A stretch of 64,000 nucleotides of DNA from Gammaproteobacteria bacterium (GTDB lineage: Bacteria; Pseudomonadota; Gammaproteobacteria; GCA-001735895), in assembly GCA_029862005.1 (NCBI GenBank), contig JAOTYD010000006.1, positions 69,758 to 133,757 on the forward strand. Reading direction: 5' to 3'. Below, in pieces: positions 21,758 through 56,060 of this stretch. The notes under the pieces were generated by a model. It was not told the DNA's origin. It was given only the letters and a program-made list of their open reading frames with translations, and ran no database searches. Both the position numbers and the translations under genes were made by a program. Every line of letters starts with the position of its first letter. The first letter of the stretch is position 1.

Positions 21758-21767
21758 TAAGATCCCT

Positions 21768-28828: not shown

Positions 28829-28865
28829 GCAAGAGTTTTTTGCGGTAACCAGCAGGGCAGGCAAG

Positions 28866-31149: not shown

Positions 31150-33975
31150 CTAGTTTTGTGGCGCCGCCGGGTCAAAAGGATCATTAAAGTTCTGGGCGCC
31201 TAAATCTATCCACTCTGAGATTAGCTTTAATTCGGCACCTGTCAACATAGTCGTATGATCGACACTGCCCACCGGCAATGCGCGCCCGGCGTCCAGCTCG
31301 GTTCCGGTCATCTTTTCAATGAAAAAGCTGCTGCGGGCACCAGCCGAAGTCATGATCGGAGCGATCGCAGCTGCCGGGTCGGGAATTGTACCGCCGATGC
31401 CGTCGGGCACAGTAAACTGCTCGAGCATACCCCCCGCATTGATGAACTGGCCCTGCCTGGTGTTAAACATTTGTTGATAAGACCTGAAACGATCGTTCGG
31501 GTCCTGGTTGGGATCGGTGGTCAAATCGAGCTGCCCATAGGGTAGGCGTGTACCGTTGTTAGTGGTGTGACAGCTAATACAGGTATCGTCACCGACGCCA
31601 TCGGCCACCGCCACTGACACCAGTGGCGTATTGGTCGGGTCGTTGTTTGGTGGATTGACCGGATCCATCGGCGTAATGGCGTCAACAGCGCCGCGATTAA
31701 GCTGGAAAATCGCGTGAATATGGGGTGGATAATGGATTGCCACACGGCAATTGTAGAGCCAGTTGGGAGCGCAAAAGGTATTAGTCGGCCTCAACATGCC
31801 GGGGCTCAGATCGGCATAAAGATAATCGATATCCGGGTCTGGAGTGCTTATGCCGGGATCGGTCCAGTAATCTCGGTATATCAGGTCAGCGCTGAGCTTC
31901 GGTTGATTGGCGACCGCAAGGCTATCGAAACGTACCTCCGCCATGGTTTGCCCGGGAGTACCCATGTAAGGACTAGCTGGCATCGAGCCTGGAATCAAAG
32001 TATTGACGAATATCCCACCAGCCGGCAGACCGCTATTGATCGATGGCGCCTCGCCATCGCTGCGCGCATGAATTTCGGGCGGACTACCGCCATTGTTGAC
32101 GTCATGACAACCGACGCAGGTTAGCATATCTCCCGGTTGCACCTGGAACCAGTTCTCATGCGACGGGCCAATCCTGCGACCTTCACCATCGAGCACCTCG
32201 ACCGCTAACGGGACATAGGCCGGAACTTTGACCTTGACCGAACCGTCGGGTTCGACCGGCGCGTAGCCGACGATCTCGCGCATACCCCGATTACGTTGCG
32301 GTCCAAACGCATTGCCATCAAGGTCCGGTGGGTTGACCAGCGTCGGGTCATCGGGATCGGGTATTCCGACCGACTTTACGAAACGCACGAAACGGGCGGG
32401 ACGATCGACTGCGGCGGAATTCACCGGATCGGCAAAATCCTGTACCGAGGTAATGCCGAGGCCAGCGGGCGCGCATTCGGTAAAGAAACAACCGTTAAAC
32501 GCGGGATCGCTCAAATCGTAAACGCTTTTGATATTGACCACGCCAACGACTTCGGTCTCCCAGCCAGGATCAAGCTCACCGAGCAGGCTCTTGTCGAAGA
32601 TAACCGGCGCCCGGGTTCTGTTCTCGAGCGCAATGACGTCGGTGATAACCCTGCCCGCTTCCGCCAACACGATGGGTTTCTGGGTATCGACGTCCATATC
32701 GTAAATCCAGATCGAGTAAGAGGGCGACCTTTCCACGGCCGCTGGATCATTCACATATTCATCAAGACAGGGCCTTATTACACCATTGACGTCCACCTGG
32801 CAGGTGGATTTACTGACCAGCATGCGATTCGATCCATCCCATAACGGGTAAACCGTGGCATAGCGGCCGTTGGCTGAGATCGAACCATCGTTGGTGACAT
32901 TGGAGACGGTGGCATCACGCTGCGCCGGACCGGGCATGCCCGCCAGTGACCAGAGCGGCTTATTGATATCCACAAAGCGATCGACGCTGATAACCTCAAC
33001 ATTGCCGCCGTCGAAGGTTCCGTCAAACGGCTTGGTGATTACCATCAAGTCACCGTTTTCCATTTCGCGAAAATTGGTAAAGTGGATTTCTGCGCCGCCG
33101 GTGCCGGTATTGTGACTTTGCGATCCATATAGAATCTGCAAATCGCTGCCGTCCGGATTGACGGTGTATAAATTGATTTCGTCATTGCCGCCGGCATTGT
33201 CCCAACGACTGAATACTATTTTTCCACCCTTGAAACTGGTAAATACCTGCGGGTAAAGATCGTGGCTCTGGTTGAAGGAAATCTGCTTGATTTCGGTGCC
33301 GTCGGCATTCATGACGTGCAGCACCAAAGCCTGAACACCCTCGTCTTCGTCGAGTGCGGAAAATCTCGGCTTGCCTTCGTTGATCAGCATTTCGCGAGAC
33401 TGGCGCTGACGATTCGAGGAAAATACGATACGGCCATCGGGCAGGTAGCTGGGGAAAAGATCATCACCCTCCTCGGCAATCAGAGCGGTGGAGATAACTC
33501 GACGAAGTTGACTCGTGGTTAAATCGTATTCGTAAACATTCCAGCTGGGGAACGGGGGATTGTTCGGGTCGGGGTCGAACAGGCGCAGTGAAAAAACCAG
33601 CTTGGTGCCATCGTGGCTGGCGCTCAAGCCCTTGACGTCGCCGATACCGGTGGTAACGGAGCTCGTGATATTAATCTCGTTGTCGTTACTCCGCAGATAA
33701 ACATCGCCGCCGGAACTGAACAGCCTCGGCTCGCGCACATCGACCTGAACCTCGTCGCCCATGTCGTCTACCGGAATCGGACGCTTGACGTAAGCAATCG
33801 GGATTTCGATGATGCCGGGATCGATTCCTTCGCCTGAGTCGGATCCGGGATCACATGCGCTCAGGGCGACGACTGCGGTGCATATTACAGCTAATCCTAA
33901 CCAGTGAAACTGGAATTCCATCAACTGCCTGGATCTCGTCAGAATGCGTGTATATAAGGCTGTCGTATGTTTCAT
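31150..33975 (-). CDS. lipoprotein with TolB-like PD40 beta-propeller and a C-terminal di-heme c-type cytochrome-like region
   Basis: Lipobox VALSAC. PD40-like repeats (DGTKLVFS, DGRIVFSSNR, KIVFSRWDNAGG). Two CxxCH modules: CVGCHDVNNGG at 32104-32118 and CISCHTTNNGT at 31567-31581. RBS AAGGA. Confidence 0.7.
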   Translation of the reverse strand: MKHTTALYTRILTRSRQLMEFQFHWLGLAVICTAVVALSACDPGSDSGEGIDPGIIEIPIAYVKRPIPVDDMGDEVQVDVREPRLFSSGGDVYLRSNDNEINITSSVTTGIGDVKGLSASHDGTKLVFSLRLFDPDPNNPPFPSWNVYEYDLTTSQLRRVISTALIAEEGDDLFPSYLPDGRIVFSSNRQRQSREMLINEGKPRFSALDEDEGVQALVLHVMNADGTEIKQISFNQSHDLYPQVFTSFKGGKIVFSRWDNAGGNDEINLYTVNPDGSDLQILYGSQSHNTGTGGAEIHFTNFREMENGDLMVITKPFDGTFDGGNVEVISVDRFVDINKPLWSLAGMPGPAQRDATVSNVTNDGSISANGRYATVYPLWDGSNRMLVSKSTCQVDVNGVIRPCLDEYVNDPAAVERSPSYSIWIYDMDVDTQKPIVLAEAGRVITDVIALENRTRAPVIFDKSLLGELDPGWETEVVGVVNIKSVYDLSDPAFNGCFFTECAPAGLGITSVQDFADPVNSAAVDRPARFVRFVKSVGIPDPDDPTLVNPPDLDGNAFGPQRNRGMREIVGYAPVEPDGSVKVKVPAYVPLAVEVLDGEGRRIGPSHENWFQVQPGDMLTCVGCHDVNNGGSPPEIHARSDGEAPSINSGLPAGGIFVNTLIPGSMPASPYMGTPGQTMAEVRFDSLAVANQPKLSADLIYRDYWTDPGISTPDPDIDYLYADLSPGMLRPTNTFCAPNWLYNCRVAIHYPPHIHAIFQLNRGAVDAITPMDPVNPPNNDPTNTPLVSVAVADGVGDDTCISCHTTNNGTRLPYGQLDLTTDPNQDPNDRFRSYQQMFNTRQGQFINAGGMLEQFTVPDGIGGTIPDPAAAIAPIMTSAGARSSFFIEKMTGTELDAGRALPVGSVDHTTMLTGAELKLISEWIDLGAQNFNDPFDPAAPQN

Positions 33976-34321: not shown

Positions 34322-35635
34322 ATGGGGATACTGATGGGAAAGAACAACAAAATATCGCTGCCGTTGTTAATCATGGTGGCACTGACAAGCCAGCCGCTCT
34401 GGGCCGATGCCCAGGATAGAGCGCAGGCCAAAAGAATTCATGATCGGCTCGTTGGCGTTACCGCTACTAACGCGACGATAGACGCCATGGAAGCACTGCT
34501 GATCAGTGATCCTACCGGTAAAACCGCCGCTGAATACGCGATCGACACCGCGCAAAATCCCAATGCACGATTCTTCTACAACGTAACCCTGAAGAATTTC
34601 GCCGCGCCCTGGACCAACGAAGAGCAGACGGTATTCACCCCGCTAAACGATTATTCGGCGACCGTGATCGGCCTGATACGCGATGGCGGCGATTTCAGGC
34701 AAATATTGCACGGCGACATCATCTATCGCGGTGATCCGGGCCTCGGCATCGCGGCTTACTCGAATAGCAACAACAACCACTATGAACAACTGGAAGCGCT
34801 TGGTCCCACTACTGGTGACCTCGCCAACCCGAATATCCTCGAGGGTAGCGTAACCCAGCCGGGCATAACCCAGAGCTCGGTGACAGGCCTGGCCAGTGGT
34901 GCCACCGCCGGTGTGATGACCACGCGCGCGGGCGCAATGGCGTTTTTCTCCGCAGGCACCAACCGCGCCATGTTCCGCTTCACGCTAATGAATCACCTGT
35001 GCACCGATCTCGAACCGCTCAAGGATGTCTCGCGCTCCCCCGACAAGGTTCGCCGCGATGTATCGCGCAGCCCAGGCGGCGATAGCCGTCTCTACATGAA
35101 TGGCTGTGTCGGCTGCCACGCCGGCATGGACGGCATGGCGGGCGCGTTCGCCTTCTACGAGTGGGATAGTGCCGCCGGCCGTATGCTGTACCAGGACATC
35201 GGCAGCCCGCTTTTCGACCCCGCCACCGGCGTATCGCTCAAGCACAACATTAACGGGAATAACTTCGAGTACGGTCACATCACCGAGGATGACAGCTGGA
35301 TCAACTACTGGCGCAACGGTCCCAACTCGAAGCTCGGACTCCGGCCCGCCGATGACGGCCCGAATGCTACCGGTTGGGGACCGCTCATCAATCCCGATGC
35401 CAATGGCAATGAAACCGGTAACGGGGCGAAATCTCTTGGCATCGAAATGTCCAATAGTAAAGCCTTCGCCCAGTGCCAGGTAGACAAGGCATTCAAGTCG
35501 ATCTGCCTGCGTGATCCCAATAATTTCGCCGCGGACCGCAGCGCACGCGACGGATTTGTTTCCAACTTGGTCGGCAGCGGATACGACATGCGCGAAGTCT
35601 TCACCGACGTCGCCGCATACTGCAAAGGGAGTTGA
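34322..35635 (+). CDS. secreted mono-heme c-type cytochrome-like protein
   Basis: Signal peptide; one CxxCH (CVGCH at 35105-35119); SGAT motif at 34895-34906. RBS AAGGA. Confidence 0.62.
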   Translation: MGILMGKNNKISLPLLIMVALTSQPLWADAQDRAQAKRIHDRLVGVTATNATIDAMEALLISDPTGKTAAEYAIDTAQNPNARFFYNVTLKNFAAPWTNEEQTVFTPLNDYSATVIGLIRDGGDFRQILHGDIIYRGDPGLGIAAYSNSNNNHYEQLEALGPTTGDLANPNILEGSVTQPGITQSSVTGLASGATAGVMTTRAGAMAFFSAGTNRAMFRFTLMNHLCTDLEPLKDVSRSPDKVRRDVSRSPGGDSRLYMNGCVGCHAGMDGMAGAFAFYEWDSAAGRMLYQDIGSPLFDPATGVSLKHNINGNNFEYGHITEDDSWINYWRNGPNSKLGLRPADDGPNATGWGPLINPDANGNETGNGAKSLGIEMSNSKAFAQCQVDKAFKSICLRDPNNFAADRSARDGFVSNLVGSGYDMREVFTDVAAYCKGS

Positions 35636-35637
35636 AT

Positions 35638-38304
35638 ATGAATAAAAATCACCCTTTTATTAAGATCATTTCACTCCTTGCACTGGGCGCGATGATGGCG
35701 GCCTGTGACAGTGGCGGCGTTGGCACCACGGCTAACCAGAACCTGGGTAACACGGCTAACAATTTCGCCTACACCGGTCCGGCCGCGCGCGACATCGCCG
35801 TCAGTAATTTCCAGTACTACCTATGGCGGAACGTGACCGACGTAACCCGCTGCGGCGGCTGTCATAACTCAGAAGCCAGCGCGCCGGTTACCCCGTTATT
35901 CTTCGATACCTCCAATGTTAACGTAGCTTACGACGCGACTGTGGCCAGGGATCCGTCACTTTTACCCGCGAATCTACCGACGATGAATCCGTTGAACGCG
36001 GTATTTGTCGACAAGCTCAACAATAATCACTTTTGCTGGGAGACCAATCCCGCGATCTGCGCCACGCTGATAGCTGGTTGGATCGACGACTGGAAAAATG
36101 CGGCCAATGGCGGCGCTGGGGCGCGCCAGATCAATCTGACTGCACCGGCCAGCATCAGGGACCCGGGCGACTCCAAGTCGTTTCCCGCCACCGCGACCAC
36201 TGTCGGCACCAACGGCACCAGTTTCGCCGATACCGTGTACGAGCTGCTGGTTGGCAGCAACCCGGTAATTGCCGACAATAACTGCCAGAACTGCCACAAT
36301 GAAGTTGGCCCAATATTGCCGCAGGCGCCGTTTTTTGCCCACACCGATGTCGATGTAGCTTACGAGGCCGCCAAGTCAAAAATGGACATCGATACACCCG
36401 CTAATTCGCGATTGGCCGTGCGCCTGTTCGAGCAGCACAACTGCTGGAGCACCTGTGGCCCCGACGAAACGCTGATGGTGCAGAGGATCACGGATTTTGC
36501 CGATGGCATTGCGGTTTCGTCGATCGACCCCACCCTGGTCACCAGTAAGGCACTGACCCTGGGCGAAGGTATTATCGCCTCCGGTGGCAATCGCCATGAA
36601 ACCGATCAATTCGCCATCTGGGAATTCAAAACCGGCACTGGTCTGACCGCTTACGACACCAGCGGTGTCGGCGCCTCGATCAACCTGTCACTGATCGGCA
36701 GCGTCAACTGGGTTGGCGGCTATGGTCTCGAATTCACTGGTGGACGGGCACAGGCCGATACTATCAGCAGCGATAAAATCTTTACCTATCTTCAGGATAC
36801 CGGTGAATATGCCATCGAAGCCTGGGTCATCCCGGCCAACGTCACCCAGGAAGACGCCAATATCGTCAGTTACTCCGGTGGTGACCTCGCGCGCAATTTC
36901 ACGCTGGGCCAGGATATGTACAACTACGAGTCTTACAACCGGATTGACTCGGTTATTCCTGCACCGAACGGCGAACCCGTTATGTCTACCGGGGAAGACG
37001 ACGAGGAGCTGGCGCAAGCCAGCTTGCAGCATGTCGTGATCAACTATGATCCCCTCGATCGCCTTGGCAATGGCGCTGGCCGCAGCATTTACGTCAACGG
37101 CCAGCTGGTCAATAACCTGACTGACACCGCGGCGGGATTACCGATCACAAACGTCTGGGACGATACTTTCGCATTCATCCTCGGCAACGAAATCTCAGGA
37201 AACCGCCCGTGGATGGGACAGGTCAAAATGGTTGCGCTACACAACAGGGCACTAGCCCAACCAGAGATTCAGCAGAACTTCGACCTCGGCGTCGGCCAGA
37301 AATTCCTGCTGCTATTCTATGTCGGTCATCACCTCGGTGAAATCGGCAACCCCAACAGCTTTATCATGTTCGAGGTGGCCCAGTTCGACAGCTACAGTTA
37401 CCTGTTCAACAAGCCCACGTTCGTCACCCTTGATGGCAGTGCCCCGAGTTCAGACATTGATATTAAAGGCCTGCGTATCGGCATCAACGGCAAAGAGGCG
37501 CTCGCAGGCCAGGCTTATGCCAACCTCGACACCAGCGTCATCGCCGCCACCTACGACCCGGCGACCGGCCAGGAACTGTCTTCTAAGGGTACTATTATTT
37601 CGCTCGAAAAAGGCTCCGACAGCGACGAGTTCTTCCTGACTTTCGAGGATTTCAACGGCTTCACCAAGGCCTTTAGTGATATCGTTCCGACAGTAGCTGC
37701 CGATCCGGGCGATCCGGTCAACCCGCTTGAGGCCGACATCGGCGTGCGCACCTTCCAGGAGATCAATGTGACCATCGCCGAGATTACCGGCGTGCCTGTC
37801 ACCAACACGGCAGTCGCAACGGTTTACAACGACTACATCCAGCAGTTGCCGACGATAGAGGCGATCGAAGCCTTCCTGCCCTCGCACCAGATGGCGATCG
37901 CGCAACTCGCGTTGACTTCCTGTAGCGAACTGGTCGAAGGCAACGGTTCGATACCCAGGGCGACCTACTTCCCTGGATTCAATTTCGGCACCAACGCGCA
38001 AACCGCTTTCGATACCCAGGCCGAGCGAGATGCGATTATCGATCCGCTGCTAAGCGCGGCGATGAACGTCGACCAGGCCACGCCTGCGAATAATCTCATC
38101 ACGCAACCAGTGGAACTGGAAGTCGCTGACTTGCTGAGTTCTCCGGCCGCGCAGGATCTTGATCCCGCACTCACCGGCGACTCGTATGACAGTCTGATAA
38201 CAGAAATGTTATCCGATCTCGTAAACACGCCAGCACGCACCGAGCAAATCGTGAAAGCCGTCTGCGCCGTCGCCACTGGTGGCGCGGTAATGCTAGTACA
38301 ATAG
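35638..38304 (+). CDS. lipoprotein with two cytochrome-c-like CxxCH modules and a LamG/concanavalin-like domain
   Basis: Lipobox LGAMMAAC. CGGCH at 35851-35865 and CQNCH at 36283-36297 lie in an internally duplicated module (...P..FF...V.VAY). Jellyroll/LamG-like middle region. RBS AGGGAG. Confidence 0.68.
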   Translation: MNKNHPFIKIISLLALGAMMAACDSGGVGTTANQNLGNTANNFAYTGPAARDIAVSNFQYYLWRNVTDVTRCGGCHNSEASAPVTPLFFDTSNVNVAYDATVARDPSLLPANLPTMNPLNAVFVDKLNNNHFCWETNPAICATLIAGWIDDWKNAANGGAGARQINLTAPASIRDPGDSKSFPATATTVGTNGTSFADTVYELLVGSNPVIADNNCQNCHNEVGPILPQAPFFAHTDVDVAYEAAKSKMDIDTPANSRLAVRLFEQHNCWSTCGPDETLMVQRITDFADGIAVSSIDPTLVTSKALTLGEGIIASGGNRHETDQFAIWEFKTGTGLTAYDTSGVGASINLSLIGSVNWVGGYGLEFTGGRAQADTISSDKIFTYLQDTGEYAIEAWVIPANVTQEDANIVSYSGGDLARNFTLGQDMYNYESYNRIDSVIPAPNGEPVMSTGEDDEELAQASLQHVVINYDPLDRLGNGAGRSIYVNGQLVNNLTDTAAGLPITNVWDDTFAFILGNEISGNRPWMGQVKMVALHNRALAQPEIQQNFDLGVGQKFLLLFYVGHHLGEIGNPNSFIMFEVAQFDSYSYLFNKPTFVTLDGSAPSSDIDIKGLRIGINGKEALAGQAYANLDTSVIAATYDPATGQELSSKGTIISLEKGSDSDEFFLTFEDFNGFTKAFSDIVPTVAADPGDPVNPLEADIGVRTFQEINVTIAEITGVPVTNTAVATVYNDYIQQLPTIEAIEAFLPSHQMAIAQLALTSCSELVEGNGSIPRATYFPGFNFGTNAQTAFDTQAERDAIIDPLLSAAMNVDQATPANNLITQPVELEVADLLSSPAAQDLDPALTGDSYDSLITEMLSDLVNTPARTEQIVKAVCAVATGGAVMLVQ

Positions 38305-38316
38305 GATTCGAATATC

Positions 38317-39945
38317 ATGGCCAGATTTAAAAAGAACCAGTACATCCCCCCCCAGGCACCGTTGTTGTACGAAGACCACGGACGTCCTGTCACCCGACGG
38401 CAGTTTATTCGCCAGGGCATGATGACCGGCTCGGCTACCGTGCTTTCGGCCGGCGCCTTCGGTATGTTTGCGAATCCGAACATGGCGCGTGCAGCGGTCG
38501 CACCCGATCTTGACGCCCTCGCGACCGATATCGGCTGTATCCTGGGCGGTGTCGGCGCCGGTCAAAGCGTACCCTTTATCGCCTTTGACCTGGCCGGGGG
38601 TGCTAATTTTGCTGGCTCCAACGTGCTGGTCGGCCAGGGCGGCGGACAGATGGATCTGCTGTCCACGGCCGGTTACAGCAAACTCGGTCTGCCGGGCGAT
38701 ATGCTGCCCGGACAGGACAGCACCGGCGTAACCCTGTTAAATACCAGCGCCAACAACGATTTCACCAATAATGATCTCAATCTCGTATTTCATGCGGATA
38801 GCCCGATGCTGTTCGGCATTCTCGAGAAAGCCAGCACGGCAATCGGCAATGTCGATGGCGCCGTGATCCCGGCACGCTCGGACAACGACACCGGCAACAA
38901 TCCGCATAACCCGCTCTACCCGCTGGCGATGGCCGGTGCGCGCGGCAGTGTGGTCGACCTGATTGGTTCGCGCAGTAGCGTCTCGGGCGGCAACTCGATG
39001 GCGCCGGCGATGTATATCGATCCCAATTTCCAACCCACCAAGGTAGATCGTCCCAGCGATGTCACCGGGCTTGTGGATGTCGGCGATCTGACCACAATCC
39101 TGGGTCCGGACGATGTCACCGCGGTGATGGAATCCATTACCCGGATAACCCACAAAAAACTCAAGCTGGGTACCATCGACACCGGGCTGACCAACGACGA
39201 CGTGGTCAAGGACCTGGTACGCTGTGGCTACCTCAAGGCCTCCGACATCGCCGACCGCTTTGCCGGCGTCGAAGTCGATCCGACACTCGATACCAACATT
39301 GCTGGTCCGATCTTTTCGGCAACCGAACTGGCCAACGATGGTGAGTTCAGAAAAACCGCCTCGGTCATGAAAATGGTCATGAATGGCTATGCCGCAGGCG
39401 GCTGCATCACCATGGGTGGCTATGATTACCACACCGGTGACCGGCGCGTCGGTGAAAATCGCGATTTGCGGGCCGGGCGCTGCATCGGCGCCTGCCTCGA
39501 ATATGCGCGCCTGCTGGCGTCTCCGCTAATGATTTACGTGTTTAGCGACGGTTCGGTGGCCAGTAACGGTAACACCGACGATACCGCGTCTGCCGGTGCT
39601 GGTGAGAACCTGGTACTCGGTGGCGGCGGCAAGGGCGAATGGACTGGCGATAATTCCTCGACCGCCTGTTCCTTTTTCCTGGTGTTCGACCCGACAGCCG
39701 CACCTACGCTGGTCGGCACACGCCAGATCGGACGTATGAACGCAGGCGCTTCCGTGGTCACCTCGGCCACGCCCGCGGCAAATAACGTCAACCTGCTGGT
39801 TAATATGGTCATACTTAACTATATGGCCGTGAACGGGCAGGTGTCGCCCGGAAATACAACCGCCTTCACCAATATTTTTCCGAATCACGGCCTGGGTAAT
39901 CAGGCAAACCTGGACAGCTTTATTTCGTTTGGTTCTTTGGTGTAA
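38317..39945 (+). CDS. Tat-signal secreted protein of unknown function (possibly DUF1501 / sulfatase-superfamily-like)
   Basis: Twin-arginine motif TRRQFIRQG plus an h-region. 542 aa. Tightly coupled to the preceding heme lipoprotein. Confidence 0.6.
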   Translation: MARFKKNQYIPPQAPLLYEDHGRPVTRRQFIRQGMMTGSATVLSAGAFGMFANPNMARAAVAPDLDALATDIGCILGGVGAGQSVPFIAFDLAGGANFAGSNVLVGQGGGQMDLLSTAGYSKLGLPGDMLPGQDSTGVTLLNTSANNDFTNNDLNLVFHADSPMLFGILEKASTAIGNVDGAVIPARSDNDTGNNPHNPLYPLAMAGARGSVVDLIGSRSSVSGGNSMAPAMYIDPNFQPTKVDRPSDVTGLVDVGDLTTILGPDDVTAVMESITRITHKKLKLGTIDTGLTNDDVVKDLVRCGYLKASDIADRFAGVEVDPTLDTNIAGPIFSATELANDGEFRKTASVMKMVMNGYAAGGCITMGGYDYHTGDRRVGENRDLRAGRCIGACLEYARLLASPLMIYVFSDGSVASNGNTDDTASAGAGENLVLGGGGKGEWTGDNSSTACSFFLVFDPTAAPTLVGTRQIGRMNAGASVVTSATPAANNVNLLVNMVILNYMAVNGQVSPGNTTAFTNIFPNHGLGNQANLDSFISFGSLV

Positions 39946-39969
39946 GCTAACCTTTTTGGTGCACTTTAC

Positions 39970-40989
39970 ATGTCTGAATCTCTGGCAGGCAAAGCCAATG
40001 GTTTGCCTCGGCAGACATTAGCCTCGTCTATCTTTACGATAATTCTCCTGTGTAGCCAAACGACGGCGCACGCCGAATGGCATCAACAGCAGCGCGACAT
40101 CATGGGAACCCGGGTTTCAGTTGAACTCTGGCATGATGAAGCCACAACCGCATCCAGATGCAGTGAAAAGGTTTTCACCGAAATGCGTCGCATCGAAGCA
40201 AGGATGAGCTCATATAAAAGCGACAGTGAGCTTTCATTTATCAATGACAACGCCGCGATGAACGCGGTCAAAATCAGTGATGAAATGATGCATCTGATTA
40301 AAAGATCGATTCACTTCTCCGAGGTTTCGAAAGGCGCGTTCGATATCACTTATGCCAGCGTCGGCTATGCCTACGACTACCGTAAACGCCAGCAGCCCAG
40401 CAATGAATCTATCTCGGAGAAACTGCCAGCTATCGACTATCATCATATTATGATTTCCGGAGATGAGATTCAGTTTGGCAACGATGCGGTACGTATCAAC
40501 CTCGGCGGCATCGCCAAGGGTTACGCGGTCGATCGTGCTGCCGATATTATCGGCCAGTGTGGCATCACCGAGGCCATGGTAAGTGCGGGCGGTGACAGCC
40601 GTATCATCGGAGATCGCAAGGGTCGCCCCTGGGTCATGGGTATCAAGCATCCTCGCGACCCTGAGGGCATTGCGATACGTCTGCCGCTCAGCGAAAGCGC
40701 GATTTCAACGTCGGGTGATTACGAGCGGTTTTTTATTGACGACGGCAAACGCGTGCATCACATTATCAATCCCGCCACCGGCCGCTCCGCGACGGCCAGC
40801 TGGAGTGCAACCGTCGTCGGCCCCGATGCCCTGACAACTGACGCTTTATCTACTACTATTTTTATTCTGGGTGCAGTCGACGGAATTACCCTGATTGAAA
40901 CCCTGGAAGGAATCGACGCCATCATTATCGATAGCGATGGAAAAGTGCATTACTCCTCTGGCTTTGAAGTACCTGAAGTCAAACAATAA
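39970..40989 (+). CDS. apbE: FAD:protein FMN transferase (ApbE family)
   Basis: Lipoprotein-like signal; the ApbE fold signature is spread along the protein. Confidence 0.85.
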   Translation: MSESLAGKANGLPRQTLASSIFTIILLCSQTTAHAEWHQQQRDIMGTRVSVELWHDEATTASRCSEKVFTEMRRIEARMSSYKSDSELSFINDNAAMNAVKISDEMMHLIKRSIHFSEVSKGAFDITYASVGYAYDYRKRQQPSNESISEKLPAIDYHHIMISGDEIQFGNDAVRINLGGIAKGYAVDRAADIIGQCGITEAMVSAGGDSRIIGDRKGRPWVMGIKHPRDPEGIAIRLPLSESAISTSGDYERFFIDDGKRVHHIINPATGRSATASWSATVVGPDALTTDALSTTIFILGAVDGITLIETLEGIDAIIIDSDGKVHYSSGFEVPEVKQ

Positions 40990-41011: not shown

Positions 41012-41620
41012 ATGAAATATTTCAGCCTTATCATCCTTTTACTTGTTTACCTCGCCGTTCCCGTTGTCGGGCAGGAAACTTCATCAGAGTTGATCGAAGG
41101 CGAGATCGAAGTGCCACAAGCGGAAGAATCGGACGAGGCCAATGCAGAATCGATCGATGAAGATGAGTCCCTGGAAGGCTCGCTCGACGCGGATATCGAA
41201 GCCCTGAAAAAAGAAGTACTATCGCTTAACCGGGACCTGTTTATCCTCGAAGAGGACTTACTGTTTCCTTCGAACACCCAGTTCAGCGTCTTCCTGTCGA
41301 TGAACGCCGGTGCACTGTTCAGTCTCGATTCGATCCAGCTGAAAATTGACGACAAGAACATCGCCAATCACCTGTACACCGAGCGCGAACTCGCGGCCCT
41401 CAAGCGCGGTGGCGTGCAGCGTCTCTACATCGGCAACCTGCCGACAGGTGAGCACGAAATTATCCTGATTTTTACCGGGGTTGGACCCAAGGGTCGGGAC
41501 TACCGCCTCGGTGAAACAATCGTCATAGAAAAGACAACCGATCCCCAGTTCGTGGAATTCATGATCGCTGATGATACCGGTAAGGAACAACCTCAATTCG
41601 ATGTGCGTGTCTGGGAATAA
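41012..41620 (+). CDS. secreted acidic coiled-coil protein
   Basis: Signal peptide, a D/E-rich stretch, a coiled coil (ALKKEVLSLNRDLFILEEDL), then a beta-rich C-domain. Confidence 0.5.
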   Translation: MKYFSLIILLLVYLAVPVVGQETSSELIEGEIEVPQAEESDEANAESIDEDESLEGSLDADIEALKKEVLSLNRDLFILEEDLLFPSNTQFSVFLSMNAGALFSLDSIQLKIDDKNIANHLYTERELAALKRGGVQRLYIGNLPTGEHEIILIFTGVGPKGRDYRLGETIVIEKTTDPQFVEFMIADDTGKEQPQFDVRVWE

Positions 41621-43487
41621 GCGCCATCAAAAATTCCTGAGGCACGTATCGCGCGGCATTCGTCGCTCATTCTACGGGCTACTGTTAAGCTGTGCCTGCA
41701 GCCCGGTCATCGCGGTTCAAACGGTCGAACATAGAGTCGAGGATCTCGACTATGGTCGCGCACTCTACCAGTTTTTCCAGGATAGCAGGCTGGCGGCAAT
41801 TACCCAACTGATGATAGCCGCGGAAAGACCTCGCAGCCGTAGCCAGGTCAATGAGTCCAACCTGTTGCTCGCAGATCTATACTACGGGTACGGGCTATAC
41901 GAAGAATCGCGCGACCTGTTTGCCCAGCTCCTGACCGCCGAGGTTTCGGACTCGATTCAAAACAGGATCTGGTTCAACCTGGCACGGCTTCGCTACGAGC
42001 AGGGTTACTATGAACCAGCGCTTGACCTGCTATCACGCATTAACGACCAGCTACCGGGTGGTGTGGAGTCAGAAAAGAGATACCTGCTGACCAACCTTTA
42101 TCTTGACAATCGCCAGTACGACGAGGCCGCCGATCTCAGCAACCAGATCAACCCGAAATCGATCTGGAAGATCTACGCGCGCTACAACCTGGCGGTAACG
42201 CTCATCGAAGACGATCGCTACGAGTCCGGTAAGACACTGCTCGAAAAGATCGGCCAGATGGAAGCCGGTACACCCGAATTGATTGCCCTGCGCGATCGCG
42301 CAAATCTTTCGCTGGGGCTCAAACAGCTGCGCATGGAACTGGCCGAGCCGGCACTGGAAAGCCTTTCCAGGATCAGGCTCGAGGGACCCCTGAGCAACGA
42401 GGCGCTACTTGCATCCGGCTGGGCCTGGTATCGACTCGGCAAGTTCGACAAGGCAATGATCCCCTGGCAGGTGCTGCTGCAGCGCAACGCAGTAGATGCA
42501 GCGACACAGGAAGCGATCCTGGCGATTCCCGCCAATTACGCCAAGTCAGGCCAGGACGGGCTGGCAGTACGCCATTATGAAATTGCCGCGACACAGTTTG
42601 ATTTGCAGCTGCAGTTGCTCGATAACGCGATCAAGTCGATCGAAAGTGATGAATTAATTGCAGCGCTGCGGGAAAACGCCATTCTCTACGATCGCAGCAG
42701 CCTGCAACGCTTACCACCGAGTTCCGATGTTACCCCGCAATTACACCTTCTGCTGGCTTCGACAGAATTTCAACGCGAAATTACACGCTACCAGGAATTG
42801 CTCGATATTCGTAACTCGCTTCGATTCTGGGGCAATAACTTCCCTGCTCTGGAGCTGATGCTGTCAGAGCGTCGCCGTGGTTTTGAAAACAAGCTGCCGT
42901 TACTGCAGCAATCCAGCAGTTTCGATCAGCTCGATCTACTGCGTGAACAGAGGGACCAGTTTGCCGGCCGGGTCAGTGCGATCGAGGCGGCACAAGACTT
43001 CGAGGCGCTCGCAAATCCGGATGAGCAGGAACAGCTGTCAAGGCTGCAACGCGTCTCGACGTCTATTGACATGGTCGCACCGGAACGTAATACGGCCTAC
43101 CAGCAGGATATGTTTCGCCTGTTATCCGGATTGCTGCGGTACGAGTTGGAGACCGACTTTCCGGTAAGATTCTGGAAAACAAAGAAACAGCTGATACTGC
43201 TGGATCGTGCACTGGCTGAATCCGAGCAGCGGGTTAATGACTTACGCAGGATCACGGAGCGTACCGACCTCGAGTTCGGTCTGTTCGAGAAACGCATCGG
43301 CGGCCAGACAGAGCGCATCAGTCAATTGCGTAGCAAGGTCTCAACCCTGTTGTCGTCACAGGAGCGACTCATCAATCAAATGGCAATTGACGCCATTCGT
43401 CAACAGCAGCAGCATATCGTGCAGTTACGCCTTAATGCCCGTTTTGAACTGGCCAAAATTTTCGACCGGATGGCGGCAGAACAATGA
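41601..43487 (+). CDS. TPR-repeat protein with C-terminal coiled coil
   Basis: Signal-like N-terminus (…RRSFYGLLLSCACSPVIA), multiple TPR-like helices, long coiled-coil tail. Start is uncertain: ATG 41601 overlaps the upstream gene by 20 nt. Confidence 0.6.
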   Translation: MCVSGNKRHQKFLRHVSRGIRRSFYGLLLSCACSPVIAVQTVEHRVEDLDYGRALYQFFQDSRLAAITQLMIAAERPRSRSQVNESNLLLADLYYGYGLYEESRDLFAQLLTAEVSDSIQNRIWFNLARLRYEQGYYEPALDLLSRINDQLPGGVESEKRYLLTNLYLDNRQYDEAADLSNQINPKSIWKIYARYNLAVTLIEDDRYESGKTLLEKIGQMEAGTPELIALRDRANLSLGLKQLRMELAEPALESLSRIRLEGPLSNEALLASGWAWYRLGKFDKAMIPWQVLLQRNAVDAATQEAILAIPANYAKSGQDGLAVRHYEIAATQFDLQLQLLDNAIKSIESDELIAALRENAILYDRSSLQRLPPSSDVTPQLHLLLASTEFQREITRYQELLDIRNSLRFWGNNFPALELMLSERRRGFENKLPLLQQSSSFDQLDLLREQRDQFAGRVSAIEAAQDFEALANPDEQEQLSRLQRVSTSIDMVAPERNTAYQQDMFRLLSGLLRYELETDFPVRFWKTKKQLILLDRALAESEQRVNDLRRITERTDLEFGLFEKRIGGQTERISQLRSKVSTLLSSQERLINQMAIDAIRQQQQHIVQLRLNARFELAKIFDRMAAEQ

Positions 43488-46309
43488 CTAAAAGCCTGTC
43501 CCATCGCCTGCCCATCATGATGCTCACCGCGACACTTGTTGCCTGTGGTTCAGGTGGGTCCGATTTCGGACCGACGATCGGTGATCTCGAGGAACTGCCG
43601 CCCCTGCTGGAGACCGCGGAACTGGAGCCGCAGGCGAGTTTCAAAGTCGATCGTCAGCAAGTCATAGACAGCTTTCGGGCCCTGGTTGAGATAACGGCCG
43701 ACGGTGGCGGTACCGGAGATGAATTACGACGCCTGGCTGATCTCGAACTGGAATCCAGCCTCGATAACCGAATATCCGATGACGAGACGACCCAGCAGCA
43801 GGGCATTGGCGAAGCGGCACGGGCAATCGGGATTTACGAAGCCTATCTTAAAAAATACCCCGAACGCCCGAGTAACGATATGGTGCTTTACCAATTGTCT
43901 CGTGCCTATGCCCTCGAAGCTGAATCTGAAAAATCCATAGCCGCGCTGGATCGCATCGCGCGCGAGTACCCGGATTCACAATACATGGACGAGGTTCAGT
44001 TCCGGCGTGGCGAGAACCTGTTTGTGCAGCGGGAATACCAGGCTGCAGAGCAGGCTTATGGCAAGGTCGTAAACGATCACCCGGATTCGCTGTTTTTCGA
44101 AAAAGCGCTCTATAAATATGGCTGGACGCAGTTCAAACAGAGTCGCTATCGCGATGCCCTAGCCAGCTACACGCGCTTGCTCGACGTCAATTTTGAACAG
44201 GATAAGATCTGGGAAATCGGTTTCAATCCAGGGCTGCCTAGAGCAGATCGGGAGCTACTCGAAGATGTCGTGCGCGTCGTCTCACTCAGCTTTTCCTACC
44301 AGGACGAAAAATACTATATTGCACAATACTTCAATGAAACCGGAAAGCGAAACTACGAGCCCCTGCTTTACCTGCGGCTGGGCGAACTTTACCTGGACAA
44401 AAAGCGCATCATCGACGGTTCGGATCTGTTCCTGGCCTACACCAAGCAATACCCCTACTCATCGCATACCCCGCGTTTTCACCAGCGTGCAATTGAAACC
44501 TTCCAGCAAGCCGGTTATTCGGACCTGGTGCTAAAAGAAAAGATCGCCTTCGTTAACCGCTACGACGTAAACGGCGAATACTGGGCGTTGCAGGAACCCG
44601 AAACCCAGCGAACCCTGACCAAGACCCTGGTCTTGCACATGACCGAGCTGGCTACCCATTTTCACGCACTGGCCCGGGCCAGCAAGAAAATGAAAGACTA
44701 CGGGATTTCGGCCGACTGGTATCGCCGCTTTCTAAAATCCTTTCCGAATGATCCGGGCGCACCGCGGATGAATTTTCTGCTCGCCGAAAACCTCTACGAT
44801 GCAGGTCAATATCCGCAGGCAATCGACGAGTACCAGAAAACAGCATATAACTATGCGCCACACAAGGATAGTGCCGAGGCAGGCTACGCAGCGCTGATCG
44901 CGTTTGATGCCCTGTTCAAGACGACCAATGCAAGTGACATTCCCGCATTGCGGCGCAAGCGCATTAAATCGGCGGTCCGCTTTACCACGGCTTATCCCGA
45001 TGATCCCCGATTGTCGGTGGTTGAACTGCAGACCGCACAACAGTTCTTCAAGTGGAAGAATTATCCTGACGCGATCGCGTCGGCAAACCGCCTGATTGAA
45101 AACCAGCGCGTTGACAAAACCACCAAGCAAACCGCGTGGACAATACTGTCCGATGCGCAGTTTTCAACGGCGGACTACGCCGCGGCTGAAAAATCCTATC
45201 TCACGCTGCTGACTTTTATGCCGAAACAGGACCAGAAGAGAAAGGCAGTGCGCGAACAGGTCGCCGCGAGTATTTACAAACAGGGGGAAATCGCTCGTGA
45301 GGTGGGGAATCACCTGCTCGCAGCACAAACCTTCACCCGACTTGGCCAGGTGATCCCAGAATCTCCAAAACGCAAGGTCGCCGACTACGATGCGGCAACC
45401 GCGTACATACAACTCGAAGACTGGTCGACCACGATCGCGCAACTGGAAGCCTTTCGCAAGAGATACCCGAGTGATAAAAAGTTCACGGATGGTGTCACCG
45501 AGAAACTCGCGCTGGCCTACAGCAAAAATGGAAACCAGTCCAAGGCGGCGCGGGAAATACTCGCGTTATCGAATCTTCCCGGCACGGCTGAGCGCAAGCG
45601 GGACCTGATGTGGCGTGCTGCCGAACTGTATCAGCAGGACGGCCAGCCCGAACAGGCGATTGCAATCTACAAGCAGTACGTCAAGGTTTATCCCTACCCG
45701 CTGGAACGCTCGATCGAACTGCGTCACAAGATCGCCGAATCATATCGCGCCAAGAACGATACCAAGAACCGTAATTACTGGCTCAACGAAATTATCAGGG
45801 CGGATGCAGCTGGAAAATCGGAACGCAGTGCACGTAGCCGGTACCTGGCCGCTACCGCCAGCCTGGAATTGATCCAGCCACTGCATCGAACCTATAGCAA
45901 AGCCAGGCTGACAATACCGCTTAAAACCAGCCTGGGCAAAAAGAAAAAACTGATGCAACAAGCGATTGACGCCTACAGCAAGGCAATGAAATACCAGGTG
46001 CAGGAAGTAACCACCGAAGCCACGTTCCAGATTGCCGAAATCTACCATGATTTCGCAAGATCCCTGATGGATTCACAAAGACCCAAGGGTCTTGATGAAG
46101 AACAACTCGAAGAGTACGAACTGTTGCTGGAAGAACAGGCCTTTCCGTTCGAGGAGAAGGCAATCGATATACATCTGGCGAACTTCAAGCGCATCCCCGC
46201 CGGCACTTTCGATGAACCCACGAAAAAGAGTTTACAGGTCCTGGGTGAAATGATGCCGTTTCGTTACGCCCGGGCTGAGAGCACTGATAATTATGTTGAA
46301 ATTCAATAA
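43484..46309 (+). CDS. large TPR-repeat lipoprotein
   Basis: Lipobox LVACGS; about 940 aa of TPR-like repeats. ATGA overlap with the upstream gene. Confidence 0.72.
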   Translation: MTKSLSHRLPIMMLTATLVACGSGGSDFGPTIGDLEELPPLLETAELEPQASFKVDRQQVIDSFRALVEITADGGGTGDELRRLADLELESSLDNRISDDETTQQQGIGEAARAIGIYEAYLKKYPERPSNDMVLYQLSRAYALEAESEKSIAALDRIAREYPDSQYMDEVQFRRGENLFVQREYQAAEQAYGKVVNDHPDSLFFEKALYKYGWTQFKQSRYRDALASYTRLLDVNFEQDKIWEIGFNPGLPRADRELLEDVVRVVSLSFSYQDEKYYIAQYFNETGKRNYEPLLYLRLGELYLDKKRIIDGSDLFLAYTKQYPYSSHTPRFHQRAIETFQQAGYSDLVLKEKIAFVNRYDVNGEYWALQEPETQRTLTKTLVLHMTELATHFHALARASKKMKDYGISADWYRRFLKSFPNDPGAPRMNFLLAENLYDAGQYPQAIDEYQKTAYNYAPHKDSAEAGYAALIAFDALFKTTNASDIPALRRKRIKSAVRFTTAYPDDPRLSVVELQTAQQFFKWKNYPDAIASANRLIENQRVDKTTKQTAWTILSDAQFSTADYAAAEKSYLTLLTFMPKQDQKRKAVREQVAASIYKQGEIAREVGNHLLAAQTFTRLGQVIPESPKRKVADYDAATAYIQLEDWSTTIAQLEAFRKRYPSDKKFTDGVTEKLALAYSKNGNQSKAAREILALSNLPGTAERKRDLMWRAAELYQQDGQPEQAIAIYKQYVKVYPYPLERSIELRHKIAESYRAKNDTKNRNYWLNEIIRADAAGKSERSARSRYLAATASLELIQPLHRTYSKARLTIPLKTSLGKKKKLMQQAIDAYSKAMKYQVQEVTTEATFQIAEIYHDFARSLMDSQRPKGLDEEQLEEYELLLEEQAFPFEEKAIDIHLANFKRIPAGTFDEPTKKSLQVLGEMMPFRYARAESTDNYVEIQ

Positions 46310-46934
46310 CATAACCGCACTTTTACTTGCCGCATTACTGCTCGTAGCCTGCCAGAGCGGTCCCGACAAGGCATCGCCTCCAAAACCCGAGGTCGCGGCG
46401 ACGCCGAGTACAGAAGAGCCAGCAACTGAAGCAGAGGTGGTGGATTTTTATCAGCAATTTTATGAAGACGCGGTGGCTTCGCTTAAAAGCGGCAAAACTG
46501 CGCAAGCAGTAGAACTGCTGGTGCAGGTCAGCAACGATGCACCCGACAAGCCCTACGTTTTCACTAACCTCGGGCTCGCTTACTTCAAACTGCAGGAACT
46601 GGACCTTGCAGAACAGGCGTTCAAACAGGCAATTACGCGCGACGATAATGATGCCGTTGCGCATAACCATCTCGGAATCCTGCAGCGCCAAAAAGGGCAA
46701 TTTAAAGAGGCGATGAATCGCTATCAACGTGCCATTAAGATCGATTCCAGCTACGCGTCGGCGCATCTGAACCTCGGCATCCTATTCGATATCTACCTGC
46801 AGGATCTGGACCTGGCGTTACGACATTACCAGAATTACCAGTCTCTGATCGGCGAGGAAGATACCCAGGTGGCCAACTGGATTGTCGACATCAAGCGACG
46901 CCTGAAATCGGGCACTACCAAGTCCCAGGGATAA
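46293..46934 (+). CDS. TPR-repeat lipoprotein
   Basis: Lipobox LLVACQS; three or four TPR motifs. Confidence 0.72.
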   Translation: MLKFNNITALLLAALLLVACQSGPDKASPPKPEVAATPSTEEPATEAEVVDFYQQFYEDAVASLKSGKTAQAVELLVQVSNDAPDKPYVFTNLGLAYFKLQELDLAEQAFKQAITRDDNDAVAHNHLGILQRQKGQFKEAMNRYQRAIKIDSSYASAHLNLGILFDIYLQDLDLALRHYQNYQSLIGEEDTQVANWIVDIKRRLKSGTTKSQG

Positions 46935-46938
46935 ACAA

Positions 46939-47223
46939 ATGAGAAAACTTTCGCTAGCATTTTTCCTATTATTTGCTATTTCAAGTACTGCTAATGTGTG
47001 TGCTCAAGAAAGACTGCAAATGGAAGGCACCGAGATAACCGGAAACAAGGAATTGCCCAGGGTTTTGTATATCGTTCCATGGAAATCGGTTGAACGTTTC
47101 GAGATTTCGTCACCCCCGATTACAAGTATCATGGACCAGCAACTAACCCCCATCGAAAGGGCTGCTTTCAAACGACAGATTCACTATCACGACGCCATTT
47201 TTTCAAAGGCAAAACTGGAATAA
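46939..47223 (+). CDS. small secreted protein
   Basis: 94 aa with signal peptide; lies immediately upstream of exbB. Confidence 0.45.
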   Translation: MRKLSLAFFLLFAISSTANVCAQERLQMEGTEITGNKELPRVLYIVPWKSVERFEISSPPITSIMDQQLTPIERAAFKRQIHYHDAIFSKAKLE

Positions 47224-47259
47224 TCCAGCAGTTGACCAGAGACCGCGGAGGCTCTCGCA

Positions 47260-47907
47260 ATGAACGAAATACTAGTTACAGTAATCAGGTTTTTCCAGGA
47301 CGGTGGACCATTCATGTACCCTATTCTGATTGTTCTGGCTATCGGCCTGGCGATTACGATAGAGCGCTGGTTGCATCTTACCGTTGCAAAAACGAAAAAT
47401 CGCCTCATGATTGCCAAGCTGATGCCACTGGTGGCAAAAGGTGATGTAAACAACGCCAGCGAACTCGCTCGAAAATCAAGCGCTACGGTTAGCCGAATTC
47501 TGCTGCAGGGTATCGAGCATTACAAATCTGCTCGCCGCAGGGATGATTTCGAATCGGCAATGGATGAGAGCATCATGGAGGCAATTCCACGTCTCGAAAA
47601 GCGCACCCATTACCTGGCAATGTTTGCCAATATAGCGACCCTGCTCGGGCTGCTGGGAACAATTATCGGCTTGATCAAGGCGTTCACCGCGGTCGCCCAG
47701 GTCGATCCATCGATGAAAGCGGAGATACTATCAACCAGTATATCGGTCGCTATGAATACCACCGCGTTCGGACTCATCGTCGCGATCCCGCTATTATTTT
47801 TCTACACGGTATTACAAACCAAGACGACCGAAATCGTCGACAGCCTTGAGATGACTGTCGTCAAGTTCGTCAATCATTTATCTCGCGTTAAAAACAGCGC
47901 CGGGTAG
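47260..47907 (+). CDS. exbB: MotA/TolQ/ExbB proton-channel family protein
   Basis: 3-TM topology with conserved C-terminal TM helices. RBS GGAGG. Confidence 0.9.
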   Translation: MNEILVTVIRFFQDGGPFMYPILIVLAIGLAITIERWLHLTVAKTKNRLMIAKLMPLVAKGDVNNASELARKSSATVSRILLQGIEHYKSARRRDDFESAMDESIMEAIPRLEKRTHYLAMFANIATLLGLLGTIIGLIKAFTAVAQVDPSMKAEILSTSISVAMNTTAFGLIVAIPLLFFYTVLQTKTTEIVDSLEMTVVKFVNHLSRVKNSAG

Positions 47908-47916
47908 GTACTACAA

Positions 47917-48408
47917 ATGTCAAGACGGGTACATCGGCGCAAGCATCCGGCTGTCGAGCTGAACATTACTGCCTTCATGAACTTGATGGTAGTGCTGGTG
48001 CCTTTCTTATTGATGACGGCGGTGTTCAGCCATATCACCATCCTCGATTTAAACCTGCCCCCACCGGGCGGGCAGGATACCAAGCAACCAAAAAAGCCTC
48101 CTTATGAACTGCGCATCACGATTCGCAAAAATATGCTGGTGCTCTCCGATAACCGCCTGGGCTTGATTCAACGTATTCCGTCCAAGGGCAAAGAACATAA
48201 TTTCGCCATGCTGAAGGAGACCCTGAAACAGGTTAAAGCTCGGATTCCCAAGCATACCAATATCACGATCCTGGCCGAGCAACAAACCCGTTATAACGAC
48301 CTGATCAGAGCGATGGACAGTTCGCGTTCGTACCGCACAGAAGTCGAGGGTGAGTGGGTCTTTGCCGAACTGTTCCCCGATATATCGATTGGCGATGCGG
48401 CCAGGTGA
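47917..48408 (+). CDS. exbD: ExbD/TolR family protein (copy 1)
   Basis: Single TM (LNITAFMNLMVVLVPFLLM) plus periplasmic domain. Confidence 0.88.
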   Translation: MSRRVHRRKHPAVELNITAFMNLMVVLVPFLLMTAVFSHITILDLNLPPPGGQDTKQPKKPPYELRITIRKNMLVLSDNRLGLIQRIPSKGKEHNFAMLKETLKQVKARIPKHTNITILAEQQTRYNDLIRAMDSSRSYRTEVEGEWVFAELFPDISIGDAAR

Positions 48409-48426
48409 TAACAGGATGTTGATGCA

Positions 48427-48918
48427 ATGAAATTATCCAGACGCGCCAAACGCATGAATCAGCACCACGTTCGTGGGCAGAAGCGAAACGCCATGTTAAA
48501 CATGGTGTCGTTAATGGATATATTTACGATCCTGGTTTTTTTCCTGTTGGTGAATGCGACCAGTACCCAGATTTTGCCCTCACCCAAGAACATCGTGTTA
48601 CCCGAGGCCGCGGCTGAGAAATTGCCTTCCCGCAACCTGGTCATCGCCGTTGACGAACGTGTCATCCGCCTGCAGGGGAAAGCCATTGTTACGGTCAAGG
48701 ATGCGCTCAAAGGTGACCGCAACTCGATCAAGCCTCTGTTTAATGCGTTGCGACTTGCCTCGACGACGGTCAAGGATATCACCGACAAGCAGGGTGTTAC
48801 GATTATGGGTGACCAGGAGATTCCTTACCTGCTGCTGAAAAAGATCATGCTGACCTGTGCCGGTGCGCAATATACCAATATCTCGTTCGCTGTAAACCAG
48901 AAGGTATTAGACAGCTAA
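48427..48918 (+). CDS. exbD: ExbD/TolR family protein (copy 2)
   Basis: Paralogous to copy 1 (MVSLMDIFTILVFFLL). Confidence 0.88.
   Translation: MKLSRRAKRMNQHHVRGQKRNAMLNMVSLMDIFTILVFFLLVNATSTQILPSPKNIVLPEAAAEKLPSRNLVIAVDERVIRLQGKAIVTVKDALKGDRNSIKPLFNALRLASTTVKDITDKQGVTIMGDQEIPYLLLKKIMLTCAGAQYTNISFAVNQKVLDS

Positions 48919-54398: not shown

Positions 54399-56060
<1,662 letters not shown>

Follow-up and report, generated by a model that had tools for sequence, protein, structure and literature searches.

PSCyt/DUF1501 modules have been described in Planctomycetes, Verrucomicrobia and Lentisphaerae, where the most complex clusters also contain a PSCyt1/WD40 protein, cytochrome plus beta-propeller (Kamneva et al. 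2012, PMC3542564). A search of the literature on DUF1501, DUF1549 and DUF1553 found no newer functional data. A gene set of ApbE, DUF3570, DUF4266 and a thioredoxin-like protein has been found with orphan apbE genes, and experiments showed that the cognate ApbE flavinylates DUF3570 at two serines (Meheust et al. 2021, PMC8238504). Here both systems are compared with a locus on a 64 000-nucleotide stretch of a gammaproteobacterial genome (the window; GenBank assembly GCA_029862005.1, contig JAOTYD010000006.1, positions 69 758 to 133 757 of the forward strand). At the centre of this locus is the gene for Tat542, a 542-aa protein with a predicted twin-arginine translocation (Tat) signal, preceded by the genes of two heme proteins, designated heme437 (a mono-heme protein of 437 aa) and LamG890 (a heme/LamG lipoprotein of 890 aa), and followed by apbE.

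Tat542 represents a new, unnamed and widespread family in a known type of module. We favour, with moderate confidence, an explanation in which heme437, LamG890 and Tat542 would form a three-protein periplasmic module, with Tat542, built on an alkaline-phosphatase (AP)-like core, as its folded and probably metal-loaded catalytic subunit. Once exported by the Tat pathway, Tat542 would work with the c-type hemes of both partners, and among proteobacteria the module would be the counterpart to the PSCyt/DUF1501 modules known from Planctomycetes and Verrucomicrobia. ApbE, rather than acting as a maturation factor for Tat542 or heme437, would most likely attach flavin mononucleotide (FMN) to the conserved D-x-x-[S/T]-S-A-S serine or serines of DUF3570, whose gene shares the divergent half of this conserved locus with those of DUF4266 and a TlpA-like thioredoxin.

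Tat542 and its two heme-protein partners

The central genes and the signal peptide of Tat542 are as follows.

34322-35635, + strand: heme437, secreted mono-heme c protein (CVGCH) and first gene of the trio; open reading frame (ORF), found in 63 of 80 loci
35632-38304, + strand: LamG890, lipoprotein with two repeated heme-c modules, a Laminin_G_3 domain and a conserved C-terminal domain; ORF and domain scan
38317-39945, + strand: Tat542, predicted Tat-exported protein of an unclassified family with a predicted AP-superfamily-like fold; ORF of 542 aa
38317-38493, + strand: twin-arginine signal peptide of Tat542, comprising a conserved n-region, TRRQFIR, an h-region and A-R-A; from sequence, end at 38493 probable

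Gene context was surveyed in 80 kept loci, and 427 matching stretches were confirmed in the species-genome collection. The 34 loci with complete 10-kb flanks are referred to as fully flanked relatives. Divergence was sampled with 56 Tat542 homologues, down to 29% identity, and distant contexts with five family members at 28-35% identity, four of which had readable surroundings. Nearly all of the 80 loci carried labels of marine or sediment Gammaproteobacteria. Among named relatives, the Olavius algarvensis Gamma 3 endosymbiont came closest (best segment 95%), and other carriers were Sedimenticola, tubeworm symbionts, Thiotrichaceae, Ectothiorhodospiraceae, Woeseiaceae, Kangiellaceae and Oleiphilaceae. 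Many hosts of the Tat542 family are sulfur oxidisers, and heterotrophic lineages carry the family too.

The Tat542 family comprises at least 7989 clusters at 90% identity and at least 1165 representatives at 50% identity (E-value ≤1e-3). This size and the 427 matching stretches show that the Tat542 gene is real. A first-pass annotation, made by a model from the letters of the sequence, had reported a canonical twin-arginine motif in the 542-aa protein, its tight coupling to the di-heme/LamG lipoprotein and an ApbE gene next in order, and all three observations were borne out. The motif T26-R-R-Q-F-I-R32 (38392-38412) precedes a 19-residue h-region and then A-R-A; R27 and R28 were invariant in 56/56 homologues. 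The elements of a Tat substrate (S/T-R-R-x-F-L-K, h-region and AxA site) are thus all present in the sequence, and export of Tat542 by the Tat pathway is predicted from them. The n-region before the twin arginines (residues 1-25, 38317-38391) was also conserved across the same sequences, as P..H..H..P.TRR.FLAQG, with H21 kept in at least 90% of them. Such conservation is unusual for a Tat signal, and the n-region may be a candidate binding site for a dedicated export chaperone.

The three genes are tightly packed. Those of heme437 and LamG890 overlap by 4 nt, the LamG890 stop codon ends at 38304, and a 12-nt spacer separates it from the Tat542 ATG, with an AGGA overlapping the stop codon. LamG890 was found in 70/80 loci, that is, in every locus whose upstream flank extends to it, and is an obligate upstream partner of Tat542. 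Across the 80 loci, heme437, LamG890 and Tat542 were contiguous wherever the contig extends far enough. LamG890 itself starts with a signal that includes a lipobox (AAC at C25), and it carries two CxxCH motifs besides its Laminin_G_3 domain (2.7e-17). Its residues ~58-160 and ~196-300 are internally repeated heme modules (hhalign 99.6%), in each of which CxxCH is followed by a conserved HNCW..C motif.

The trio was kept, reduced or split, in three of the five distant contexts, at 28-32% Tat-protein identity, with heme437 homologues at 35-42% identity adjoining distant Tat homologues. In one distant locus (L086), the Tat protein is encoded with a heme437 homologue (42%) and a LamG protein that has one heme. 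In a second (L087), the Tat protein is accompanied by a 180-aa counterpart of the heme-binding C-terminal half of heme437 and by a 241-aa lipoprotein corresponding to the last ~140 residues of LamG890. A third (L089, 570-13540) carries two tandem paralogous modules, with the heme modules as separate cytochromes downstream of the Tat gene; here each Tat gene is followed by a separate multi-heme cytochrome of 648 or 1182 aa instead of a fused heme/LamG lipoprotein. The remaining two distant contexts had other partners or none that were recognisable. Neither ApbE nor DUF3570 was found nearby in the four distant contexts with surrounding sequence. On this evidence, the trio is an autonomous module and ApbE is not generally required by Tat542.

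The C-terminal domain of LamG890 (37921-38304) occurs free-standing, as a small lipoprotein, in distant loci (L087 733-1458; L089 9130-9969). It always has a Cys 13-14 residues before the C-terminus and one further conserved Cys; the corresponding pair in LamG890, C764 and C878, probably forms a disulfide, judging from this conservation. A SoxY-like carrier arm was considered for the C-terminal Cys and rejected, as the minimal homologues contain two Cys outside the lipobox and no more, in keeping with a disulfide. A JDVT-CTERM-type sorting signal was likewise rejected for LamG890, the tail of which has no transmembrane segment, Asp-Pro motif or Arg cluster.

Predicted fold of Tat542 and relationship to DUF1501

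No Pfam family was found for Tat542 even at E-values up to 10, and NCBIfam likewise gave no match. A hidden Markov model search against DUF1501, sulfatase and alkaline-phosphatase families, which the first-pass annotation had put forward as a check, was run on Tat542 and on the 56 diverse homologues, and none of them matched DUF1501, sulfatase, alkaline phosphatase or a related Pfam model. Searched by sequence and by profile, the PDB yielded only non-significant matches between the signal peptide of Tat542 and other Tat signals, which for the profile were those of NosZ, DyP and PaoA.

To predict the fold, a first model from a shallow alignment (predicted local distance difference test score, pLDDT, 67) was replaced by an AlphaFold2 model from a diverse alignment, with pLDDT 84 and a predicted template modelling score (pTM) of 0.82. 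The top 50 Foldseek matches of this model in the PDB were exclusively AP-superfamily structures, from about nine families. These included steroid and carrageenan sulfatases, alkaline phosphatases, cofactor-independent phosphoglycerate mutases (iPGM), phosphopentomutase, ENPP6, PorX, MCR-1/ICR and phosphonoacetate hydrolase.

In the alignment of 56 sequences (29-52% identity), D191, D370, H372, D411 and D445 were invariant, and D91 and S162 near-invariant. By sequence position, D91 lies within predicted core strand 87-92, D370 and H372 follow strand 361-366, and D411 follows strand 404-410, while the model places S162 at a helix N-terminus. Placed in this way, by sequence position, the conserved Asp/His residues would fit the metal site of the AP superfamily. 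This suggests that Tat542, from an unclassified family, may be an enzyme that depends on a metal and is built around an alkaline-phosphatase-like core.

In Pfam, DUF1501 shares a clan with alkaline phosphatase and sulfatase, in keeping with the fold match of Tat542. The first-pass annotation had likened the locus to PSCyt plus DUF1501 pairs, and this likeness stood for gene architecture and fell for family membership. In a real DUF1501 locus (L084), a 1077-aa PSCyt1/PSCyt2/Laminin_G_3/PSD1 protein is followed by one small gene and then DUF1501, an order comparable to that of LamG890 and Tat542. The retrieved DUF1501 proteins, which all matched PF07394, were aligned as a reference set for profile comparison. 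Tat542 gave no match to PF07394 at E-values up to 10, and 0/56 homologues matched at E≤0.01. With hhalign, the Tat542 family aligned to the real DUF1501 proteins at a probability of 1.2-1.3% (E 0.04).

It could be argued that Tat542 is nevertheless a deeply diverged true DUF1501 homologue and that the trio descends from a PSCyt/DUF1501 module of the planctomycete and verrucomicrobial type instead of having converged on it. The permissive hhalign alignment with Tat542 is collinear, pairing the Tat signal, the first strand plus GG, DTxNNPHNP with TEAINHDPA and GGYDYH with RGWDQH, although it is not significant. One heme module of LamG890 (module 2) gives a 24-column match to the PSCyt1 region (75%, E 2.5e-5), in which only the heme-binding stretch is alike; the LamG domain of LamG890 matches the LamG of the PSCyt protein at 89%; and the two kinds of module share their gene order and a Tat signal. 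Set against this are the very low profile probability given above, the absence of PF07394 from all 57 sequences and the failure of BLASTP to return any match. The partners also differ, in that hhalign finds no likeness between PSD1 and the C-terminal domain of LamG890 (1%), heme437 has no hhalign match to PSCyt proteins, and a Pfam scan of LamG890 finds Laminin_G_3 only, with PSCyt1, PSCyt2 and PSD1 unmatched. We consider this descent unlikely, if still worth holding in mind. The resemblance of the trio to PSCyt/DUF1501 pairs is real in architecture and probably extends to the fold; homology of Tat542 to DUF1501 is not demonstrable by these sequence comparisons, and Tat542 does not classify as a member of that family.

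Tat542 might alternatively lack catalytic activity and serve as a scaffold or binding subunit, a pseudo-enzyme whose only role is to position the cytochromes or to bind a ligand. At the position usual for the superfamily there is no conserved nucleophile, S116 and T117 vary in the wider family, and the fold matches are weak. However, five acidic or His residues are invariant over 56 sequences at 29-52% identity, S162 at the helix N-terminus is near-invariant, and export by the Tat pathway is usually the mark of proteins that fold with a cofactor. A pseudo-enzyme is accordingly rated as improbable next to the metal-dependent enzyme proposed here.

ApbE and its candidate target

The genes and motifs that bear on flavinylation are the following.

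39970-40989, + strand: ApbE, periplasmic flavin adenine dinucleotide (FAD):protein FMN transferase; PF02424, 3.2e-78, profile positions 1-266 of 266
34895-34906, + strand: SGAT, the flavinylation site proposed earlier in heme437; not conserved
27650-28885, - strand: DUF3570 protein, likely ApbE substrate, probable start 28819; PF12094, 2.3e-40; called as 389 aa in the source contig
28541-28585, - strand: candidate flavinylation sites in DUF3570, D-N-V-T-S-A-S and then V-D-V-L-V-S-A-S; from translation
28866-29090, - strand: DUF4266 lipoprotein, 74 aa, ending in CGCN (C-terminal CXC); PF14086 in an identical contig
29095-29607, - strand: TlpA-like periplasmic thioredoxin (WCGPC); from sequence, in 34/34 fully flanked loci

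The window ApbE scored below the cut-off of the E. coli ApbE equivalog model (131 vs 498 bits), and a cleavable N-terminal signal peptide with an AxA site was present in all of the ~45 ApbE orthologues listed. Among the 34 fully flanked relatives, ApbE lay directly downstream of Tat542 on the same strand in 21, adjacent on the opposite strand in two, beyond the TonB-like gene in three and out of range in eight, and so within 10 kb in 26/34. It was relocated or missing within 10 kb in 13/34. Given this variation and the absence of ApbE around the distant family members with readable surroundings, a role of ApbE in maturing the Tat protein is not supported.

Thioredoxin and DUF4266 were encoded in all 34 fully flanked relatives, and DUF3570 in all 29 of them whose flank extends to it. 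In one arrangement, that of L037, L038, L042 and L047, a single strand encodes the trio and ApbE as well as the HZS-alpha-like protein, the outer-membrane barrels and the thioredoxin/DUF4266/DUF3570 set. The published ApbE target motif is D-x-x-[S/T]-G-A-[S/T], and a G-to-A change in another substrate kept ~50% of flavinylation. The first DUF3570 site of the window (D-N-V-T-S-A-S, 28565-28585) fits this motif save for a change of G to S. It reads D-x-[IV]-[S/T]-S-A-S in 31/34 orthologues, and SGAS, SAAS or TSAT in the other three. The second site follows ~8 residues after the first and is x-x-A-S in most orthologues and canonical [S/T]GAS in five. A survey of motifs found no conserved flavinylation motif in any other protein of the locus.

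Because the published ApbE gene set is conserved in the locus and the DUF3570 site is conserved, as the SGAT of heme437 is not, ApbE most likely serves DUF3570 and not heme437. To judge by these sequences, this would be an ordinary ApbE-DUF3570 pairing in this organism.

The first-pass annotation had instead put forward the heme437 SGAT, in which Thr195 would be the flavinylated residue, as making heme437 a possible flavo-cytochrome, and the Tat protein and ApbE as a candidate flavinylation or cofactor-insertion sub-module. The SGAT is located exactly where it was reported, within a secreted protein of the same operon, and the apbE gene follows directly after the Tat gene. However, strict [ST]GA[ST] occurs in just 4/64 heme437 orthologues, the others having ASAT, AAAT, SNAT and further variants, and there is no Asp at position -6, as D-x-x-[S/T]-G-A-[S/T] would call for. 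Many relatives keep the mono-heme protein but have ApbE missing or relocated. The SGAT had also been taken as the only candidate motif in a neighbouring secreted protein, which overlooked the near-canonical D-N-V-T-S-A-S on the minus strand in DUF3570, a validated family of ApbE substrates encoded in the same locus. A flavo-cytochrome is therefore very improbable; that proposal can be dropped, and DUF3570 is the ApbE target to consider instead.

The name 'general secretion pathway protein GspF', carried by P0001, P0011, P0036, P0056 and P0095 in NCBI records of metagenome-assembled genomes, is almost certainly wrong as an identity for Tat542 (type II secretion protein GspF) and was rejected by the family scans as a propagating misannotation, since neither T2SSF nor any other Pfam or NCBIfam family matches, the Tat signal is the sole hydrophobic segment ahead of a remainder modelled as a soluble alpha/beta fold and not a polytopic one, and there are no type II secretion genes nearby.

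Several observations weigh against the favoured explanation, that of an AP-like catalytic subunit in a heme trio together with an ApbE that flavinylates DUF3570. The Foldseek scores are weak, with a best E-value of 5.5e-4 and TM-scores of ~0.2, and no sequence profile ties Tat542 to any AP-superfamily family in Pfam, in the PDB profile search or with hhalign. The physical association of the trio is predicted from synteny only. ApbE adjoins Tat542 in 23/34 fully flanked relatives, which could reflect a link to the trio itself, and the DUF3570 sites depart from canonical SGAS.

The wider locus and comparison with known systems

The locus has two further parts.

31150-33975, - strand: HZS-alpha-like di-heme beta-propeller protein, 941 aa, transcribed divergently from the trio; PF18582, 4.1e-15, and PD40; in 34/34 fully flanked loci
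41012-49910, + strand: downstream module of a 202-aa secreted protein, three TPR proteins and ExbB-ExbD-ExbD-TonB-like proteins; domain scans

The HZS-alpha-like protein combines a PD40/TolB-like propeller, a hydrazine-synthase-alpha middle domain and two CxxCH motifs. Two small outer-membrane barrel proteins are also encoded on the minus strand. The end of the DUF3570 gene has a 68-nt overlap with the gene of a ShlB/FhaC-type two-partner-secretion transporter (POTRA_2 and ShlB; 26107-27717, - strand), for which no obvious TpsA cargo was seen. On the other side, the TPR/ExbBD module was syntenic in most relatives, not in all. The 202-aa secreted protein (41012-41620) matches no family, co-occurs with the TPR/ExbBD genes and exceeds its neighbours in conservation, for example at 93% in one relative (L017) vs 71% for Tat542.

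Genes for cytochrome c maturation (ccm) lie upstream at 16282-23083. At 57437-60410 (+ strand), a DsbD that has two DsbD_N stretches precedes a TlpA-like redoxin, and this DsbD is a possible electron source for the periplasmic thioredoxin/DUF4266/DUF3570 set and the ccm genes. A Lon-like protease of LonB/LonC type (AAA_32, LonC_helical and Lon_C; 51756-54185, - strand) adjoins GroEL (54399-56045) and FxsA (56546-57001) and is unrelated to the finding. An Rfam scan of the window gave no RNA family, promoter and terminator scans were at chance level, and the divergent intergenic region had no Fur, Pho, FNR or sigma-54 boxes.

A more speculative reading, which we regard as doubtful, is that the trio, the HZS-alpha-like protein, the flavinylated DUF3570 with DUF4266 and thioredoxin, the barrels and the TPR/ExbB-ExbD-TonB proteins together form one envelope-spanning redox machine, in which an AP-fold metalloenzyme would be wired to hemes and a covalent flavin. 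For the 23-kb cluster as a single unit, synteny lends support within this clade only. If true, such a machine would add a new class to the periplasmic hydrolases or transferases, one that is coupled to redox chemistry and resembles Sox in its logic, and would offer a first functional handle on both the DUF1501/PSCyt modules and the DUF3570 system.

The large Tat542 family, without a Pfam or NCBIfam model of its own and misnamed GspF, is abundant in marine sediment bacteria and sulfur-oxidising symbionts. As a predicted AP-like, Tat-exported partner of cytochromes, it provides an architectural link to the long-unexplained DUF1501/PSCyt modules, and cultivable proteobacterial carriers, such as Sedimenticola and Oleiphilaceae isolates, exist for functional work. 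The fixed association with DUF3570, DUF4266 and thioredoxin also brings forward candidate redox partners for that orphan flavinylation system.

When compared with the AP superfamily (sulfatases, alkaline phosphatases, iPGM, nucleotide pyrophosphatases/phosphodiesterases and phosphoethanolamine transferases), Tat542 finds its only fold matches there and has its conserved Asp/His residues within or just after predicted core strands. It differs in its very low structural scores and lack of a match to any family model, in that no nucleophile motif such as CxPxR was identified and in large helical insertions at residues 246-355.

The published DUF3570 flavinylation system (PMC8238504) has all four of its components encoded in the window, where DUF4266 ends in CXC, ApbE is predicted to be extracytosolic by its signal peptide and DsbD is encoded 7.5 kb beyond the locus. 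Unlike in that system, the window ApbE is encoded within a cytochrome operon, on the strand opposite to DUF3570 and 11 kb away from it, and the sites are [S/T]-S-A-S, not [S/T]-G-A-[S/T]. The set is moreover fused to a much larger conserved cluster, one that is unmentioned in the main text of that study.

As in the PSCyt/DUF1501 modules, a Tat-signal gene stands just downstream of a gene for a secreted protein combining CxxCH motifs with Laminin_G_3, and the PSCyt1/WD40 protein of those modules is paralleled by the HZS-alpha-like heme/propeller protein of the window. The trio departs from them in that Tat542 has no sequence or profile match to DUF1501, LamG890 has a different C-terminal domain in place of PSCyt2 and PSD1, and an extra mono-heme partner, heme437, is present. 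The Tat542 family is also found in Gammaproteobacteria, embedded with DUF3570/ApbE and TonB-ExbBD genes.

Thiosulfate oxidation by the Sox system combines the heme protein SoxAX, the carrier SoxYZ and the Tat-exported hydrolase SoxB. The trio is not homologous to these proteins, the C-terminal Cys of its small partner is paired, probably in a disulfide, instead of forming a carrier arm, and the Tat542 family also occurs in heterotrophic lineages. The likeness is one of functional analogy: in both cases a c-type cytochrome is found with a Tat-exported metallohydrolase-like protein, as predicted for Tat542, and a small partner that has a conserved Cys 13 residues before its C-terminus, and sulfur oxidisers are frequent among the hosts of the Tat542 family.

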